From Parcubacteria group bacterium (GTDB lineage: Bacteria; Patescibacteriota; Minisyncoccia; Moranbacterales; JAKLHP01), in assembly GCA_041657845.1 (NCBI GenBank), contig JBBABD010000001.1, positions 14,255-78,254 of the forward strand: a DNA stretch of 64,000 bases, given 5' to 3'. Numbering within the stretch: position 1 is the first letter of the stretch; each line of letters begins with the position of its first letter. The position numbers were made by a program, and so were the translations under genes. The notes beneath the pieces are model-generated. The model was not told the DNA's origin, searched no databases, and saw only the letters and a program-made list of their open reading frames with translations. Of the stretch, positions 46,488 through 56,212 are shown piece after piece.

Positions 46488-47234
46488 TTATTTATTATTT
46501 TTCTTTGCAAGGTAAAAAACGGTACTTTCGAGACCATATTTCATTTTGTTAAAAGGGTAAAAGCAGAAGTACAATATGGGCTTTAGAATCTTATGTATTG
46601 CTATTTTCTTTAAGTTCCATGTTCTATATTCAAGTGGTTTGCTCATAAAATAAACTACATCATAACCACAATCTTTTAACAATTCAAATATTCTCCATGG
46701 AGAATACTCTTCAAAATGCAATTCTGACATTAAGTCAGTCTTCCCGAAAAAAAACAATTTAATTACATTCTCTATTCTATAAATACTTGGAGTAGAAATT
46801 ATTATATACCCCCCCTTTTTCATTTTTCTGCTTACTTCATTAAGCAATCCATCGGGATTATCAACGTGTTCTATTATGTTATTGCATATAACTATATCGA
46901 AATATTCATTTTGCATGGGTATATTCATCGCGTCACATGAAATAAAACTTATTTCTTTAAAAATACTTCTTGCTTTATTGATAGCTATCCCCGATTTATC
47001 TATACCAAAAACATCCGCTTTTTCAAACAAGTTTTTTATTTCATACGTAATATAGCCTTCTCCGCATCCAACATCTAAAATCTTTGGTTCTTTAGTATTT
47101 AATAATTTTTTTGCCTTTAAGCAAAGCTTCTTTGTAAAATAAATTCTTCTTTTTTGGAATTCTGATTCGATGTTGTTTTTTACTTTATACGGATCTCCAT
47201 TTTCATATTCATCATTTTTTAAAATTTTATTCAT
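46488..47234 (-). CDS. Class-I SAM-dependent methyltransferase.
   Basis: It has 'ILDVGCGEGYIT' and 'DIVICNNIIEHV'. The first ATG is at 47234; the six-frame ORF extends through the poly-G tract from a TTG. Confidence 0.6.
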   Translation of the reverse strand: MNKILKNDEYENGDPYKVKNNIESEFQKRRIYFTKKLCLKAKKLLNTKEPKILDVGCGEGYITYEIKNLFEKADVFGIDKSGIAINKARSIFKEISFISCDAMNIPMQNEYFDIVICNNIIEHVDNPDGLLNEVSRKMKKGGYIIISTPSIYRIENVIKLFFFGKTDLMSELHFEEYSPWRIFELLKDCGYDVVYFMSKPLEYRTWNLKKIAIHKILKPILYFCFYPFNKMKYGLESTVFYLAKKNNK

Positions 47235-47249
47235 TTTTAAATCAGAACA

Positions 47250-47271
47250 CCCCCCCCCCCCCCCCCCCCCC
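47250..47271. repeat. Homopolymeric C22 (G22 on the minus strand) tract.
   Basis: There are 22 consecutive C. The tract lies 16 nt upstream of the methyltransferase ATG and abuts the GC-rich end of the IS200-like element. Confidence 0.8.
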
Positions 47272-47905
47272 GCCAAAGGCGGTGGCTTGATGAATAGGGT
47301 CGCCTCAAAGGCGATCAGCCTTCATCTCACGCTTAGGTGTTAATTAATTAGCTTTTGTTAATATTTATCGTCTTCTTCTTGCTGTTCTCTGATATATTTT
47401 TGATTATCTCTTCGTCGAATCCGATGGTTAAAACTGCATATCCTCTTGCCCAGAAATGCGCTCCGGTGTAATTTCTGTCTTTTTCTCCCATCCTTGCGAC
47501 TGCAATAGCGCTTTTCCCTTTCATGAATCCGATAACTGAGGCTACGGCATATTTGGGCAGGATTTCAATACACATGTGGACGTGGTCTTTGGTGAGATTT
47601 CCTTCGGTGATTTTGCTTTCTTTCTGCTCTGCCAGTTCGTGGAGGATTTTTGCCAGTTCTGTCCTGATTTTACCATAGATTACACTTTTTCTTTTCTTGG
47701 GTATAAATATTATATGATATTTGCAATTCCATTTTGAGTGAGATAAACTTTGATAGAGATTAGGCACAATATTGTTAGTGAACGAAGACTCTTTATCAAG
47801 CCAAGTTCATTATACATTATTGTGCCTTTTTTCTTGTGGTTGCGGCAACGGTAAAACCTTTTCGAGTCTCACTAGTAGAACTAGCGGTTTACCTTCTGGG
47901 AAAAA
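47272..47905 (-). mobile_element. IS200/IS605-family insertion sequence (tnpA only).
   Basis: It contains a Y1 HUH transposase. The subterminal sequences are GC-rich and imperfectly palindromic ('gccaaaggcggtggc', 'gcctcaaaggc', 'aggcacaata...tattgtgcct', 'ctagtagaactag'). The boundaries are approximate. Confidence 0.6.
47348..47767 (-). CDS. tnpA: IS200-like Y1 transposase TnpA.
   Basis: It has 'DHVHMCIEI' (HuH) and 'GAHFWARGY' (catalytic Tyr). Its length is 139 aa. Confidence 0.85.
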   Translation of the reverse strand: MPNLYQSLSHSKWNCKYHIIFIPKKRKSVIYGKIRTELAKILHELAEQKESKITEGNLTKDHVHMCIEILPKYAVASVIGFMKGKSAIAVARMGEKDRNYTGAHFWARGYAVLTIGFDEEIIKNISENSKKKTININKS

Positions 47906-49249
47906 CTAATTATTTAATTCAGAAATTGTATATAAGAATTTACCACTTTTTGTAGGCGATATGTCCGATACAAATTTCCAAACAATTTTACATTCTTTTC
48001 CCATAACTAATTTGATGTTTTTTTCTATTTCATTAATTTCATCCAAATTCTCTTTTTTTTCAAGAACTACATTTATTTCTATTGCTTCATAATTCTTTTG
48101 TATTACTTGAAATTTATTTACCCATTTTCTAAAATAAAATAAATGAGTGAAATATTCTCCACCTATTAGAGTTCCCTCTCTGGTTTCAAATAAATTAACA
48201 CTTCTTCCCTTGATACTCTCGATAACCGGAAATCCTCTCTGACAACTTGGATTTTTGAAATCTGGAATACCGATATCCCCGATGGCATATCGTATTAGTG
48301 GCATAGCTTTATTACATAAAGTAGTAATATAAATATCTCCAGCTTTTCTAGGCAAAGAATTGTTTAATTTATCATCTAGTATCTCTAAATAATGTGAAAA
48401 AATATTGAGATGTAAGCCTTCATGTTTTTCACATTCGCAAGCAATATCTCCTACCTCCCGTGATCCATATTTATTAAAAACATGACACCGAAATACCCTT
48501 TCAATCGTTTTTCTAAATTCAGGAAAAAGAGTGCCTGCTGAAGATATTATTGACTGCGGAGTATGAATTTTTATTTTTTCCTTTTCAATAAATCTTGAAA
48601 ATTCATATATTGATTCCGCATAAGCAACAACTATGGAGGGTTTTTCTTTGTTAATTATTTCTACAAATCTAAGCATGTCTTCCTTGGTCATCCGAAAAGC
48701 ATTTAAATTAATACTGTTTATAAAATTACGCATTAAAAATCCACTCAGTCCTTCTCTGGCTTTTAGAATATCCTTCTCTGAACCCCATAAACTTATTACT
48801 AAATCTCCTGGCTTCCATCCCGCCCATTCATTCCAGAACATTTTAGTTGCTGCGCTCCAATCGTTTTTGACTTTATCCTGAAAAAAAACAACTGGTTCGC
48901 CGGTACTTCCTCCAGAAGTGTTTTTTACAGCAGTAATTTTTTTATTGATTAAATTATTGAGTTCTTTCCTAATTATTTTTTTGGTAAGAATCGGAAATTT
49001 TTTGATATCTTCGAAAATAGTATTTGGAGCAACAGTTATATTATTTTCTCTAGCAATCTTTCTGTAATATGGAATATTTTTAATTGAATAATCCAGAATC
49101 TCGTAAAGTTTCTTTTTTTGAATTGCGATATTTTCTTCCAAAGACTTCCCCTGTTGTTTTTTCAGATACTCATAAATCTCATAGCGATTGCTACCCTTTC
49201 CGTATTTCCAAAGAATTGGAGCTATATATTTTGATAAAAAATATCTCAT
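47906..49249 (-). CDS. Adenylate-forming enzyme of the PaaK/CapK (coenzyme F390 synthetase-like) family.
   Basis: The 'TSGGSTGEPVVFF' block is an ANL-superfamily AMP-binding motif. Its 447-aa length matches CapK-like proteins. Confidence 0.5.
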   Translation of the reverse strand: MRYFLSKYIAPILWKYGKGSNRYEIYEYLKKQQGKSLEENIAIQKKKLYEILDYSIKNIPYYRKIARENNITVAPNTIFEDIKKFPILTKKIIRKELNNLINKKITAVKNTSGGSTGEPVVFFQDKVKNDWSAATKMFWNEWAGWKPGDLVISLWGSEKDILKAREGLSGFLMRNFINSINLNAFRMTKEDMLRFVEIINKEKPSIVVAYAESIYEFSRFIEKEKIKIHTPQSIISSAGTLFPEFRKTIERVFRCHVFNKYGSREVGDIACECEKHEGLHLNIFSHYLEILDDKLNNSLPRKAGDIYITTLCNKAMPLIRYAIGDIGIPDFKNPSCQRGFPVIESIKGRSVNLFETREGTLIGGEYFTHLFYFRKWVNKFQVIQKNYEAIEINVVLEKKENLDEINEIEKNIKLVMGKECKIVWKFVSDISPTKSGKFLYTISELNN

Positions 49250-52777: not shown

Positions 52778-53290
52778 TTATTTCTTTATTATTTTCCAGT
52801 ATCCGCCCTTGTCGGAACCGACTCTTTCGAGCAATTCTTTTTCCTTAAGTTCAGTTATATTATTTCTTACATTTTTTTCATTAATACCTATCTTTAGACT
52901 TAATTCTCTTTGTGTGATGGCTTTATTTTTATTTATTTCAGAGAGTATCTTTTTCTGGTTTTCTGAGAGCCCCAAGTTTTCTAGGTCTTTTTCTAGGTCT
53001 TTTGTTTCTCTTTTTTTGAAAGAAACAACAAAAGCGCCCGTTTTTTCTGAAAAATCAGGCAGCTTGTTCCCATTTTTTTCACACTCTTCAATCGTATTTT
53101 TTCCAACCTGAATTTCATTCGTAGTACCATCATCTTTCATTCCAACGATAACCTTACCGCCTTTTTTATTAGCAAAGGCGCAAAGAGCAATTATCGCTTC
53201 TTTCCACTCGGAAAAAGATGATTTCAATTCAATTTTTTCAGATTCTTTCAATTTCATATAAATTTTTTGATTTTCGAAATTAATTTTCAA
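52778..53290 (-). CDS. AlbA_2 (Schlafen-like) domain plus winged-HTH protein; putative regulator or defence-associated DNA-binding protein.
   Basis: The N-terminal 'ALCAFANKKGGKVIVGMKDDG' block and the C-terminal wHTH 'ITQRELSLKIGINEKNVRNNITELKEKELLERVG' are present. Confidence 0.45.
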   Translation of the reverse strand: MKINFENQKIYMKLKESEKIELKSSFSEWKEAIIALCAFANKKGGKVIVGMKDDGTTNEIQVGKNTIEECEKNGNKLPDFSEKTGAFVVSFKKRETKDLEKDLENLGLSENQKKILSEINKNKAITQRELSLKIGINEKNVRNNITELKEKELLERVGSDKGGYWKIIKK

Positions 53291-53325
53291 AACTATCCAA
53301 ATATTCCGGAAGTTTCAGAATCCAT
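53277..53325. repeat. Cassette-boundary core repeat (variant 2), copy.
   Basis: 'aaattaattttcaaaactatccaaatattccggaagtttcagaat' matches 54965..55010 exactly. Confidence 0.6.
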
Positions 53326-53469
53326 TTTGCCTGCTCGGGATAGAAAAGAAATCTTTCCACATCTTTCACTGCCTGTTTCAAATCGCTTTTTTCGGCTTGT
53401 TTTTTCAAAAATAAACATATATTCATTCTATCAAATAAACACTCTTTAACACTTAACTATATATGATCT

Positions 53470-53547
53470 ATGATATAATTTCCCACCATTCCACCGTATT
53501 CTTTGATCCTTCTTCAAAATTAACTTCCGACTCGTAGCCAATCCATT
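53470..53547 (-). pseudogene. Relic of the 3' end of the NAD-dependent epimerase gene (duplicate of the 56300..56375 region).
   Basis: The minus strand encodes '...KIKWIGYESEVNFEEGSKNTVEWWEIIS*', versus '...GFGYEPKINFEEGLKRTVEWWKTL*' in the intact gene. Confidence 0.6.
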
Positions 53548-54243
53548 TTATTTTTCGTTTTCCCTCATTATTTTCAGAAGAAAAAGCGTATCCGTCCGGA
53601 GTTTTGCCCGAGCCCAGTCTTTTTTTGGTTCGGAAAGCATTTCACCGAGGCCATCAAGAATATGACGATTATCCATTTTCTCCAACAACTCAATGCATCT
53701 TGTCAAAATTTCCTTATATGAAACTTTAGCTCGATCTTCAACTAATTTCTTATTTATCGGCCAAATATTTTTTGCAAAAAAATACACATCATAAACATCC
53801 CGACTAGTCTTGCCAATTCGCTCATACATTGCCATCAGCTTATTGGCAAACATATCTTCCTTGACCATTATTAGCATTGGGATGCCAAGAAGTGTTTCCG
53901 GTTCGTATTTTGATCCAAAATCACGACAGTTTACCTCGATTTTGATGTTTTGAGATTTCTGATCATATGAAATAACTGTAATAAGATTAAACCGCTTAAT
54001 TCTTGAATCAATTACCTTGCCATAACCAGCAACTATTTTTTGAATCTTTTCAAACACTTCCTGCTTCTTGCTTTCGTCCAGCAAATCTAAATCAATATCA
54101 ACAGAATCGCGATCCAATCCGTAAAACATCAAAGCAGCCGTACCGCCCTTAAATCCCAAAAATGGAGCTATTGATGTGTCAGAAAAAATATCTTTCAAAA
54201 TTTGCAACAAGATATTTTTATGTTTTGGATAATTGATGGTCAT
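53548..54243 (-). CDS. AbiEii/AbiGii-family nucleotidyltransferase toxin (type IV TA, DUF1814).
   Basis: It has 'FLGFKGGTAALMFYG' (the conserved GGTAL block) and 'DSVDIDLDL' (nucleotidyltransferase DxD). There is a 4-bp ATGA overlap with the upstream gene. Confidence 0.65.
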   Translation of the reverse strand: MTINYPKHKNILLQILKDIFSDTSIAPFLGFKGGTAALMFYGLDRDSVDIDLDLLDESKKQEVFEKIQKIVAGYGKVIDSRIKRFNLITVISYDQKSQNIKIEVNCRDFGSKYEPETLLGIPMLIMVKEDMFANKLMAMYERIGKTSRDVYDVYFFAKNIWPINKKLVEDRAKVSYKEILTRCIELLEKMDNRHILDGLGEMLSEPKKDWARAKLRTDTLFLLKIMRENEK

Positions 54244-54854
54244 TTTGCTTGGTTATTTGATTTATTTTCTTCATAGTGTTCAAAATATTCCTGAACTTTT
54301 TTGTTCATTCTTTTATTGCTATAGATTGGCAAAATTTCAAAAACTTTATCCCAATCCAAAACATCCAAATGATCGAAATGATAATCCTTACTAACATATA
54401 TTCTGTCCAAAAACGCGCGCTCTTTTGTCGCGGTAGCCACATTGCCCTGTTGCTCAATCCCGCTCGTGCTACTCAAAACATAATCTTTCATTTTGACAAA
54501 ATTTATTTTTTGTCCATCAATTTCAATCTCTCTGGTAATATAGGAAGCCACAAAGATGTTTCCATAATATTGGAAATTAATTCCTGCTCGAGTTAATATG
54601 GTTTCAAAACTGATATACGCGGGGGTATAAATCCGCGTTGCCAATTCATGACGATCATAATTAGTATCTTTGGCATAAATACCGTGGCGAACCCTGATTA
54701 ATTTTCCTCTTTTAATGTAATCACTCAATCTTACGCGAACCGCGCTTCCTACCTTTTCACCCCATAACAAAGCAACATCTTTTGTGGAAAAGATGGTTTT
54801 TTGAGATCGTAATATAGTCTCAATATATTCACCCTTTGCAGGTTTTTTATCCAT
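54240..54854 (-). CDS. AbiEi-family antitoxin / transcriptional regulator (N-terminal wHTH).
   Basis: It is translationally coupled upstream of AbiEii. The N-terminus 'ILRSQKTIFSTKDVALLWGEKVGSAVRVRLSDYIKRGKLIRVRHGIYA' fits the AbiEi wHTH. Confidence 0.5.
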   Translation of the reverse strand: MDKKPAKGEYIETILRSQKTIFSTKDVALLWGEKVGSAVRVRLSDYIKRGKLIRVRHGIYAKDTNYDRHELATRIYTPAYISFETILTRAGINFQYYGNIFVASYITREIEIDGQKINFVKMKDYVLSSTSGIEQQGNVATATKERAFLDRIYVSKDYHFDHLDVLDWDKVFEILPIYSNKRMNKKVQEYFEHYEENKSNNQAK

Positions 54855-54924
54855 ATTATTACTGATAGTTAGCTTTAAGCTTACTATCAGTTCTATTATA
54901 CTAAAAAATGCACTCTTGTCAAAT

Positions 54925-55015
54925 TATATTCCCTTCCGCCATTCCACCGTCTTTTTCATCCCTCCTTCAAAATTAATTTTCAAAACTATCCAAATATTCC
55001 GGAAGTTTCAGAATT
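54925..55015. repeat. Second relic of the epimerase 3' end fused to the variant-2 core repeat (cassette boundary).
   Basis: 'ccattccaccgtctttttcatccctccttcaaaattaa' is followed by 'ttttcaaaactatccaaatattccggaagtttcagaat'. The minus strand reads 'NFEGGMKKTVEWRKGI'. Confidence 0.6.
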
Positions 55016-55180
55016 AGTCCGGATATTCACATTGAAATTCAGTCAAAAGTTCCTTAAATTATTCCAAAAGAATATTAATAAAAATTATCCGCCGTTATTG
55101 ATTTTGACCTTTACTCACACAAATATATTACTTTTTTAGCATTGAATGCATAAAAAGATATATCCAATTATACATACCGA

Positions 55181-56212
55181 TCATTTTTTCAACTTATAAT
55201 AAGTCGCTTTTCCTCTGCCCATTTTCTCAATGATACCCAATCCTATCAATTTCCTAAAATCAAGATTTCTTGTCGGTTTGGCTCTATCGGTCAATTTTGC
55301 ATAATCACGATCACTGATATACTCATTCTCTTCTATGAAATTAATAATCTTTCTATGATGATCTCTCAGGTCTTTTTCCAAAGGAACAGCCTCTTGTTTC
55401 ATCTCTTTACTCACCCTAAGCAATTCATCAATAATTCCATCCGTAAAATACTCGAGCCAGGAAGTGAAGTCGATTTGATCTTTGATTTCATAATAATTTC
55501 CAAACAAACCAACTTCTTGAAAATATTTACTGACATTTTTGTTATAATAATTTTCAAAACTGAAAAGATTGAAAGTATTAAGTCCCATCTTCGCTAAAAG
55601 CACCTTAGTTGTCAAACGAGCTGTTCTTCCATTGCCATCAATAAAAGGATGGATGATGACAAATTGTTTGTGAAAAATTCCAGCCAAAATCAAGGGATCA
55701 ACTGTGTTTTTGTTTTTTTCGATATAATCAAGCAATTCTTGCATTAATTTTGATACTTCCTTATGTTCAGGAGGAAGATAAGCAGTCTGGCGAGTTTTTG
55801 GATTATTAACAAAAACCGGCTCTTGTCTCAATTTTCCAGAGCGATATTTCTCAATCAAGCCTTGCGTTATTGTTTCCTGAATTTTCAAAATTAATGGCAA
55901 ATCAAAAACTCGTTTTTTATTTTTAATTGAATCATTCAATTCAACCAATGCCTTATTATAATTCAAAACTTCTTTTTCGCTATCGCGAATATGTTCCGGC
56001 CTAGTTTTCAAAATTCTTTTGACATCGGTCAGTGGCAATGGATTGCCTTCAATGCTCGTTGAAGAAAAAGCTGAAACCTCTCTAGCTCTTTTTTCAAGCT
56101 CCGCCAAAACTAGCCCCGAAAAATTCCGACTGTTTAAATCGACAATAATTTCAGTTATTCTCTTAATATTGCCTAATAATAGATTGGAAATGGTATATTT
56201 TGGATTAAACAT
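55181..56212 (-). CDS. Fic/DOC-family protein (AMPylator-type) with a C-terminal wHTH.
   Basis: The canonical Fic motif 'HPFIDGNGRTARL' is present, with a C-terminal 'IGLGIIEKMGRGKATYYKL'. Confidence 0.8.
   Translation of the reverse strand: MFNPKYTISNLLLGNIKRITEIIVDLNSRNFSGLVLAELEKRAREVSAFSSTSIEGNPLPLTDVKRILKTRPEHIRDSEKEVLNYNKALVELNDSIKNKKRVFDLPLILKIQETITQGLIEKYRSGKLRQEPVFVNNPKTRQTAYLPPEHKEVSKLMQELLDYIEKNKNTVDPLILAGIFHKQFVIIHPFIDGNGRTARLTTKVLLAKMGLNTFNLFSFENYYNKNVSKYFQEVGLFGNYYEIKDQIDFTSWLEYFTDGIIDELLRVSKEMKQEAVPLEKDLRDHHRKIINFIEENEYISDRDYAKLTDRAKPTRNLDFRKLIGLGIIEKMGRGKATYYKLKK

Follow-up and report, generated by a model that had tools for sequence, protein, structure and literature searches.

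A 22-nucleotide poly-G tract upstream of a glycan-operon methyltransferase gene lies within the right end of a decayed IS200-family element in a Parcubacteria-group genome

Background

Poly-G/C contingency loci of surface-glycan genes are well known from Campylobacter jejuni (capsule, lipooligosaccharide (LOS) and flagellar glycosylation), Neisseria, Haemophilus and Helicobacter. Here we ask how a tract of this appearance came to stand in front of a methyltransferase gene of a Parcubacteria-group bacterium, a member of the candidate phyla radiation (CPR), and whether it is likely to act as a switch. The sequence analysed, referred to as the window, is a stretch of 64 kb from contig JBBABD010000001.1 of a metagenome-assembled genome (MAG), in which the letters at positions 47250..47271 of the forward strand are 22 consecutive C residues, i.e. 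G22 on the minus strand, the coding strand of the methyltransferase gene. Fifteen bases lie between the tract and the ATG of this gene, placing the nearest G at -16. An earlier note on this DNA had reported the tract at exactly this position and length, and had interpreted it as a slippage-prone switch of a glycan-modifying methyltransferase, located between that gene and an IS200-like element. We find that the tract is part of this insertion sequence (IS), where it appears to be an expansion of a short G run in the right end of the element, and that it is probably a by-product of IS decay.

The identities given earlier to the two neighbours hold: the gene downstream encodes an S-adenosylmethionine (SAM)-dependent methyltransferase, as supported by its Methyltransf_31 match and its context in a glycan operon, while the open reading frame (ORF) at 47348..47767 encodes a Y1 transposase of the IS200 type. 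The GC content had been put at ~33%, and was measured as 35.3% in the window. With a C frequency near 0.19, approximately 1e-11 runs of C22 are expected in 64 kb, and the tract thus far exceeds what could arise by chance. The remaining G/C runs in the window are all 7 nt or shorter (C7 at 46809-46815, C6 at 50214 and 61929, G runs of up to 5), and Tandem Repeats Finder did not detect a second homopolymer or short-unit array of the contingency type in the 64 kb. The earlier note had held that an invariant length together with a lack of other contingency-like tracts would refute phase variation; of such other tracts there are none in the 64 kb, ~20 kb of which are taken up by glycan genes. In ~480 kb of related DNA the longest G/C run elsewhere is 11 nt, and runs of 8-11 nt occur at eight distinct places. 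The C7 run, the second-longest in the window, falls within this methyltransferase gene (read there as G7, encoding the Gly-Gly of KKGGY on the coding strand), and the second assembly of this locus described below is identical there.

The tract is internal to the right end of the IS

Other copies of the IS were gathered via close homologues of its transposase TnpA and with a DNA-pattern scan of reference genomes, and the set used for comparison comprises 81 right ends. The right end of the retrieved copies reads ...CAAGCCACCGCCTTTGGC-GGGGG-TGTTCTGACT, with the five G preceded by GGC, and the flanking sequences become unrelated only beyond the terminal GACT. The G run is exactly G5 in 76 of the 81 right ends, G4 in two, and longer in three, these being the window copy (G22), the Logan contig L001 (G13) and the JGI contig L005 (G9). 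None of the copies from reference genomes (n=75) has a run longer than G5, L005 was the single contig from JGI metagenomes with a run of at least 8 G at this position, and viral contigs contained no expanded IS copy. One lineage (L088-L093) reads GGGAG in place of G5.

By comparison with these copies, the tract is a 17-base expansion (G5 to G22) of the 3' arm of the putative recognition hairpin in the right end (hairpin 2 in Table 1). It had been described as lying between the IS and the gene and abutting the GC-rich terminus of the element; its position is instead inside the IS right end, 10 nt short of the terminus. Folding of the single-stranded DNA places the canonical G5 in the stem CC-A-CCGCC / GGCGG-G-GG of hairpin 2. 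The sequence of this hairpin is invariant across the retrieved copies, including those with 85% TnpA identity, which leaves no covariation to score.

The G9 run of L005 (L005:26-34, JGI contig Ga0209343_10120994) is the only further expanded copy found; it is followed by TACTGACT and located at the very start of a 2.1-kb contig, and may have arisen from an expansion by two G together with a T>G change in the TG usually found behind G5.

Two assemblies differ only in the length of the tract

A methyltransferase gene identical to that of the window was found only in the source contig (JGI, together with the NCBI MAG copy) and in one Logan contig, L001 (run SRR18595299), on which our literature search found nothing. 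Over 7,661 nt the alignment of L001 with the window has 0 mismatches and a single gap, of 9 nt, at the tract (G13 vs G22). This independently assembled contig covers the 3' end of the capK-like gene upstream, the whole IS, the methyltransferase gene and six more genes. A comparison of tract length among related strains had been suggested earlier; the two assemblies of this locus gave two different lengths.

The worry that the tract could be a poly-G artefact or a scaffold join is largely answered. Since the sequences to the left and right of the tract follow one another in the IS consensus, it is neither a scaffold join nor a dark-cycle poly-G; as both lengths are below the assembly k (31 for Logan), each run is spanned by real k-mers together with both of its flanks; and the motif is not error-prone in itself, since 76 other copies were assembled with exactly G5. 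The window is free of N, and continues for tens of kb on either side of the tract. We conclude that the long tract is real, with a length that differs between template molecules, be it within one sample, between samples or partly through library PCR, and also that the exact length of 22 is not to be trusted.

The IS copy in the window is decayed

Five changes, all at sites that the other IS copies conserve, set the window copy apart (Table 1), three of which (ATG>GTG at the tnpA start, CAC>CGC at the left hairpin foot and GACT>GATT at the terminus) are each unique to it among the copies compared. The frameshift near the 3' end of tnpA removes the catalytic tyrosine, which in intact relatives is part of KKYIREQ, aligns with the Tyr of the IKKYIEEQ helix in solved Y1 transposases and matches Tyr127 of IS608 by offset. 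Judged from these changes, the copy cannot make an active transposase, and most probably it is no longer usable as a transposase substrate either. The distance from the foot of hairpin 2 to the IS terminus, 9-10 nt in canonical copies, is 27 nt in the window copy.

Length of the tract and expression of the methyltransferase

The tract is located outside the annotated methyltransferase ORF, and the two closest homologues (240 and 246 aa) align from the same ATG. The earlier note had pointed out that an upstream TTG or ATG frame could be fused to the gene or shifted by changes in length. A frame starting at TTG 47276 is indeed open through the tract into the gene, and is in frame at both G22 and G13; because the two alleles differ by 9 bases, the variation observed would not toggle such a fusion. 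A GC-rich hairpin holds this TTG in its loop, in contrast to the genome's A/T-rich leaders.

An altered promoter spacing, also raised earlier, was not borne out, as a consensus promoter scan gave no hexamer pair bracketing the tract. The best pair found by eye, TTGGCG / TCTGAT (TGnTCTGAT), has 8/12 matches, would need G14-16 for a spacer of 16-18 nt, and would place the transcription start at the ATG; a role as promoter spacer was rejected, the scan having no pair and the by-eye pair being too weak. SD (Shine-Dalgarno)-like sequences (GGAG, GAGG or AGGA) precede 1-2 of the 49 genes in the window, where leaders are A/T-rich. The possibility that the poly-G run mimics a Shine-Dalgarno sequence, with GGGGG pairing to the anti-SD, was rejected given this low number of SD-like sequences and the 15 nt between the 3' edge of the tract and the ATG, a distance which is constant irrespective of tract length.

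The only length-dependent property that we could derive is a predicted G-quadruplex in the 5' untranslated region (5' UTR). ViennaRNA with G-quadruplex energies was run on varied tract lengths: no quadruplex is predicted for G5 (gain 0), two tiers are predicted from G8 to G13 (~-15 kcal/mol at G13), three tiers from G15 to G18, and four tiers at G22 (~-44 kcal/mol). Phase variation of the methyltransferase is plausible, though unsupported. From the earlier proposal of a slippage-prone switch one half stands, namely that this is a long pure homopolymer of the slipping kind, with G22 and G13 in otherwise identical DNA, whereas a switching effect found no support.

Origin of the tract

We consider it probable that the tract arose by slipped-strand expansion of a structural G run in the IS200 right end, as a hypermutable by-product of IS decay with at most a possible polar or modulatory effect on the genes downstream. 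The IS would have inserted into a 5-nt spacer between two operon genes, leaving the ORFs unbroken, and this copy would then have decayed until it could no longer move. Once transposition ceased to impose selection on the exact 10-nt interval from hairpin foot to cleavage site, the G run may have been free to grow; beyond ~8 bases it would have become hypermutable, presumably by slippage, which would account for the different lengths in two assemblies of the same strain. The spacer in which the tract now stands, 15 nt ahead of the start codon of the methyltransferase gene, would be transcribed. If the tract affects this gene and the five that follow, whether through polarity, a length-dependent G-quadruplex or another leader structure, this would be a side effect. 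In this most likely reading the tract is not a dedicated ON/OFF switch.

Several points weigh against a mere by-product of decay. A pure run of 13-22 G is unusual for neutral decay, with 11 being the longest other run in ~480 kb of related DNA, and its purity and length could reflect selection for mutability. Contingency loci typically involve genes of this class (a glycan methyltransferase) and sites close ahead of a start codon, and the predicted stability of the G-quadruplex jumps between the two-tier form at G13 and the four-tier form at G22, making a functional consequence conceivable. The locus is also represented by two sequences only. The main rival is a genuine contingency locus, in which changes in leader length would tune the methyltransferase and possibly the downstream glycan genes, either via a G-quadruplex or secondary structure or via the spacing of a weak leaderless-type promoter (TTGGCG ... 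TGnTCTGAT), and would so generate heterogeneity of surface glycans. In its favour, two alleles occur in DNA that is otherwise identical, no other run comes near the length of this pure tract, the ATG of an operon gene for a glycan-modifying enzyme is 15 nt away, and the predicted quadruplex goes from none at G5 to four tiers at G22; in an SD-less genome, where initiation should need an unstructured A/U-rich leader, such structure could matter. We nevertheless think such a locus somewhat unlikely, as the tract is neither in an ORF nor in a recognisable promoter spacer, the by-eye promoter (8/12) has its optimum at G14-16, which is neither of the observed alleles, the distance from the 3' edge of the tract to the ATG is fixed, the tract is the sole one of its kind in 64 kb, and we found no precedent in the literature searched for homopolymer switches in CPR bacteria. 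It is more doubtful still that the dead IS200 copy has been turned into a regulatory cassette, with the expanded poly-G as a length-dependent switch (G-quadruplex or leader structure) acting on the methyltransferase and the rest of the operon.

The other explanations considered concern the nature of the tract itself. Long G runs are error-prone on Illumina platforms, and a sequencing or assembly artefact, with a true run of G5 or another short length altered by poly-G chemistry, PCR stutter or de Bruijn graph behaviour, could claim the 9-base difference between the assemblies and the fact that 22 equals k+1 for k=21, a common first k of multi-k assemblers, although this may be coincidence. It is rendered improbable by the evidence on assembly given above: the hairpin on one flank and TGTTCTGAtT on the other belong to the same IS consensus, leaving no chimeric join, both lengths are below the k used, assemblies from many projects give exactly G5 for the motif in 76 other copies, and N-free sequence extends for tens of kb to either side. 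We see very little chance that the tract is translated, i.e. that TTG 47276 serves as start and adds an N-terminal extension of 14 residues with a glycine run (MAGGGGGGGCSDLK-MNK...), the tract length setting the frame. The frame is open from the TTG to the gene, and that G22 and G13 are both in frame has a chance of 1 in 3; the TTG is, however, in a GC-rich hairpin loop as opposed to the A/T-rich leaders of the genome's starts, both of the closest homologues are aligned from the ATG, and the gene callers of JGI and NCBI both picked the ATG. The earlier suggestion that the tract is the insertion target or a junction made by insertion drew on its vicinity to the GC-rich IS end, and is the least probable of all, being contradicted by the data. 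Since other copies carry an internal G5 (76/81), and 10 more IS bases follow the tract, it is neither junction nor target; the IS sequence TGTTCTGAtT beyond the tract is common to ~75 independent insertions with unrelated flanks, and it is the left end of the family that adjoins the target (TTAG/ATAG), i.e. the opposite end of the element (PMC3201880).

If the tract only marks IS decay, it provides a small, clean example of a G run in a transposon end which became a hypermutable microsatellite once unconstrained, as well as a warning against taking homopolymer lengths in MAGs at face value. If the cassette interpretation were true, this would be the first homopolymer contingency locus described in CPR/Patescibacteria, and a contingency tract born from a transposon end. 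Should the tract modulate the methyltransferase, simple-sequence phase variation would extend from mainly host-adapted pathogens to ultrasmall episymbiotic CPR bacteria, whose surface glycans plausibly matter for attachment to the host and escape from phages.

Structure and distribution of the IS200-family element

The features of the IS and its surroundings are listed in Table 1. The element belongs, by descent though non-functional, to the IS200 group of the IS200/IS605 family, an assignment made from the properties of its sequence. At the left end, nine independent insertions start with TTTTT(C/A)(C/A)CA(G/A)AAGG directly after ..TTAG, ..ATAG or ..ATTG; the left flanks end in ..ATAATTAG or ..TAAATAG, followed at once by TTTTTCCC. 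The stem of the left hairpin covaries between copies (CACTAG/CTAGTG, CACCAG/CTGGTG, CACTGG/CCAGTG), and compensatory changes are likewise present in right-end hairpin 1 (TCGCC/GGCGA, CCCGC/GCGGG, TCGTC/GACGA). There are no terminal inverted repeats, as the left start TTTTTCCCAG is not an inverted copy of the right end ..CTGACT, and there is no target-site duplication, with right flanks unrelated to left flanks (in the window AATTAG on the left and TAAAA on the right). It is possible that the promoter-like elements inside the IS drive transcripts through the right end into the methyltransferase gene.

Table 1. Features of the IS200-family element, its decay and its neighbourhood (positions in the 64-kb window)
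Feature	Position	Strand	Remarks
IS200-family insertion sequence, tnpA only	47240..47905	minus	666 bp here, 649 bp in canonical copy L002; boundaries from nine left and ~75 right independent insertions
Target and left cleavage motif TTAG, outside the IS	47906..47909	minus	its TAG is the stop of the upstream capK-like gene
Left hairpin CGCTAG-TTCTA-CTAGTG with guide-like AAAC (47890-47887)	47870..47890	minus	foot base mutated at 47885
Left hairpin foot, CAC>CGC	47885	minus	every other copy has CAC
Promoter-like elements upstream of tnpA in the IS: TGTATAAT (47816-47809) and TTGATA-17-AACAAT (47799-47771)	47771..47816	minus	consensus matches only
tnpA pseudogene, Y1/HUH transposase	47348..47767	minus	PF01797, E=2.4e-31; HUH motif (HVH) retained at 47584-47576
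tnpA start codon, ATG>GTG	47767	minus	from comparison with other copies
A6>A5 frameshift near the tnpA 3' end	A run 47397..47401	minus	KKYIREQ to KNISENS (...EEIIKKYIREQ... to ...EEIIKNISENS...)
Right-end hairpin 1, GATCGCC-TTTGA-GGCGACC	47298..47316	minus	fold and compensatory changes
Right-end hairpin 2, putative TnpA recognition hairpin (IPR), CCACCGCC-TTT-GGCGGGGG	47267..47289	minus	preceded by CAAG (47289-47286); the tract's first 5 G make up its 3' arm
G22 homopolymer (C22 on the plus strand)	47250..47271	minus	G13 in Logan contig L001; apparent expansion of the canonical G5 of hairpin 2
G expansion, hairpin-to-terminus distance from 10 to 27 nt	47250..47271	minus	17 extra G
Right-end terminal 10 nt, TGTTCTGATT (TGTTCTGAtT)	47240..47249	minus	canonical TGTTCTGACT; C>T at 47241 in the terminal GACT motif
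Terminal motif, GACT>GATT	47241	minus	from comparison with other copies
TAAAA, presumed original 5-nt spacer from capK-like stop to methyltransferase ATG	47235..47239	minus	from the IS boundaries
Class I SAM-dependent methyltransferase, 248 aa, intact	46488..47234	minus	Methyltransf_31, E=3.6e-25; ATG start
Upstream gene, 447 aa, capK-like	47906..49249	minus	no Pfam match; weak annotation
Glycan operon	52104 to 42380	minus	order: large membrane protein, GT4 glycosyltransferase, capK-like enzyme, IS, methyltransferase, kinase-like protein, second methyltransferase, GT1 glycosyltransferase, third methyltransferase, DUF2334/deacetylase-like protein

The IS is widespread in MAGs of the Patescibacteria, e.g. 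Moranbacteria, Kaiserbacteria and Falkowbacteria, and represents a well-defined new element of the IS200 group, with a length of 649 bp, a TTAG/ATAG target and IS608-like end geometry. Identical right ends were also seen in MAGs labelled Pyrinomonadaceae, Bdellovibrionales, Gammaproteobacteria, Bathyarchaeia and Omnitrophota (L007, L012, L021, L029, L041, L054 and others), as well as in many Patescibacteria, in most cases within ~130 nt of a contig end; this reflects either wide horizontal spread or mis-binned contigs ending in the repeat. The four nucleotides 5' of the left hairpin were found to covary with the flank (window 47887-47914; L002, L003, L022, L046, L051, L066, L070 and L083): copies with GGTAA-A-CC follow ..ATAATTAG (four independent insertions), and copies with GGTAA-T-CC follow ..TAAATAG (four) or ..TAAATTG (one). 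This covariation fits a guide-directed choice of target as in IS608; against a simple guide of the IS608 type, the conserved flank, at 7-8 nt, exceeds a tetranucleotide, and the changed positions cannot be aligned as a simple Watson-Crick swap. In L083:1-350 and L084:1-350 a larger, second Y1 transposase gene (at least 176 aa, PF01797) is present on the opposite strand ~250 bp from an IS copy, which suggests clustered or nested IS200-type elements.

Homopolymers were also noticed near other copies of the IS. A C11 run (L054:4765-4775) is located 24 nt upstream of the left end of a copy in a MAG labelled Pyrinomonadaceae, and may be coincidence. A second homopolymer length polymorphism beside a copy of the same IS is found in the L088 series, where the same locus from different metagenome samples has G9 (L088:411-419) or G10 (L089/L090/L092:410-419), there within a coding region, the 5' part of a bAvd gene (PF22296, an accessory gene of diversity-generating retroelements (DGR)) on the opposite strand, the called gene of which goes from 146 to 137 aa.

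A search of the 64-kb window against Rfam gave no family at gathering score, the sole match over the IS being a CRISPR-DR hit at chance level (E=0.87), and no tRNA genes were found in the window. Exact-protein look-ups returned no record for the window TnpA, for P0001 or for the 447-aa upstream protein.

Genomic setting

The glycan operon comprises nine co-directional, tightly packed genes, and the IS is inserted in the same orientation (Table 1). The element begins directly behind the TAG that terminates the capK-like gene, with 5 nt left between its end and the ATG of the methyltransferase gene, from which we infer a pre-insertion sequence TAG-TAAAA-ATG in which no ORF was broken. An empty site was not recovered, the next methyltransferase homologue being 58% identical and in a different gene order. 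The label capK-like for the 447-aa gene is based on the motif GGSTGEPV, which we take to be of the adenylate-forming type; a CapK_C match belongs to another protein in a related cluster and not to the gene in the window.

Immediately upstream of the operon, also on the minus strand (52778-56212), are genes for a Schlafen AlbA_2 + winged-helix protein (52778-53257), an AbiEii/AbiEi type IV toxin-antitoxin pair (53548-54854) and a Fic/DOC protein (55181-56212). A further IS copy (L004:599-1431, Logan SRR10769903) was found immediately upstream of a class I methyltransferase gene in a cluster containing a carbamoyltransferase, a placement which may be due to the A/T-rich ..TAG target that occurs where genes of glycan operons end.

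Comparison with known systems

The element shares with the IS200/IS605 family the Y1/HUH transposase (PF01797, with 2ec2, 2f4f and 2a6m/2vjv as structural relatives in the PDB), subterminal hairpins at both ends without terminal inverted repeats, and integration on the 3' side of a conserved short motif (TTAG/ATAG), whereby the left end adjoins the target and no target duplication is made. In IS608 of Helicobacter pylori the left cleavage site (CL) is 19 nt 5' of the left hairpin (IPL), and the right cleavage site (CR) is within 10 nt 3' of the foot of the right hairpin (IPR) (PMC3201880). The family found here is very similar in this respect, with ~18 nt instead of 19 nt from target to left hairpin and, in canonical copies, the same 10 nt from the foot of the right hairpin to the IS end (PMC3201880). 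The window copy differs by its right-end spacing of 27 nt (17 extra G), GATT in place of GACT, a mutated left foot and a catalytic tyrosine lost by frameshift; the fixed right-cleavage distance (10 nt in IS608) is thus not kept in this copy, a defect specific to the copy and not to the family. We found no report in the literature searched of homopolymer expansion inside an IS200/IS605 end, nor one of homopolymer phase variation in CPR bacteria (Patescibacteria, Saccharibacteria).

Classic contingency tracts are located within an ORF or between the -35 and -10 hexamers, are present in many copies per genome, and are usually 8-13 nt long. The tract resembles them as a long pure G/C run in an AT-rich genome, beside a glycan methyltransferase gene, and has two lengths in assemblies of what seems to be a single strain, a difference which may in part be technical, but differs from them in that it is in an IS-derived leader, without a bracketing promoter, as the only one in 64 kb and with no ON/OFF effect derivable from sequence. 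It lacks two sequence-level traits of contingency loci, a placement that allows toggling and, within the 64 kb, multiplicity. Upstream homopolymer switches, such as those of porA and opc in N. meningitidis and of the fim genes in Bordetella, set the spacing of the -35 and -10 hexamers. The tract is likewise upstream of the start codon, where its length would affect expression and not reading frame, whereas the window has only the weak 8/12 pair seen by eye, with the transcription start at the ATG.

G-quadruplexes in the 5' UTR or on the non-template strand of bacterial genes repress translation or transcription. The G22 on the sense strand, and hence in the mRNA, is predicted to form a four-tier quadruplex ending 15 nt before the AUG; unlike such elements, the tract lacks an evolved G3N1-7 motif, being a plain homopolymer whose structure would change with each slippage event. 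Within the CPR, a hypervariable repeat locus has been described in Gracilibacteria, a coding array of 9-mers (PTD tripeptide) for which slipped-strand mispairing was invoked and short-read assembly was found unreliable (PMC6851277). Both are repeat loci of CPR bacteria, but the tract in the window is a non-coding, IS-derived homopolymer, and is best described from its sequence as a hypermutable homopolymer that would be unusual in having arisen inside an IS end.

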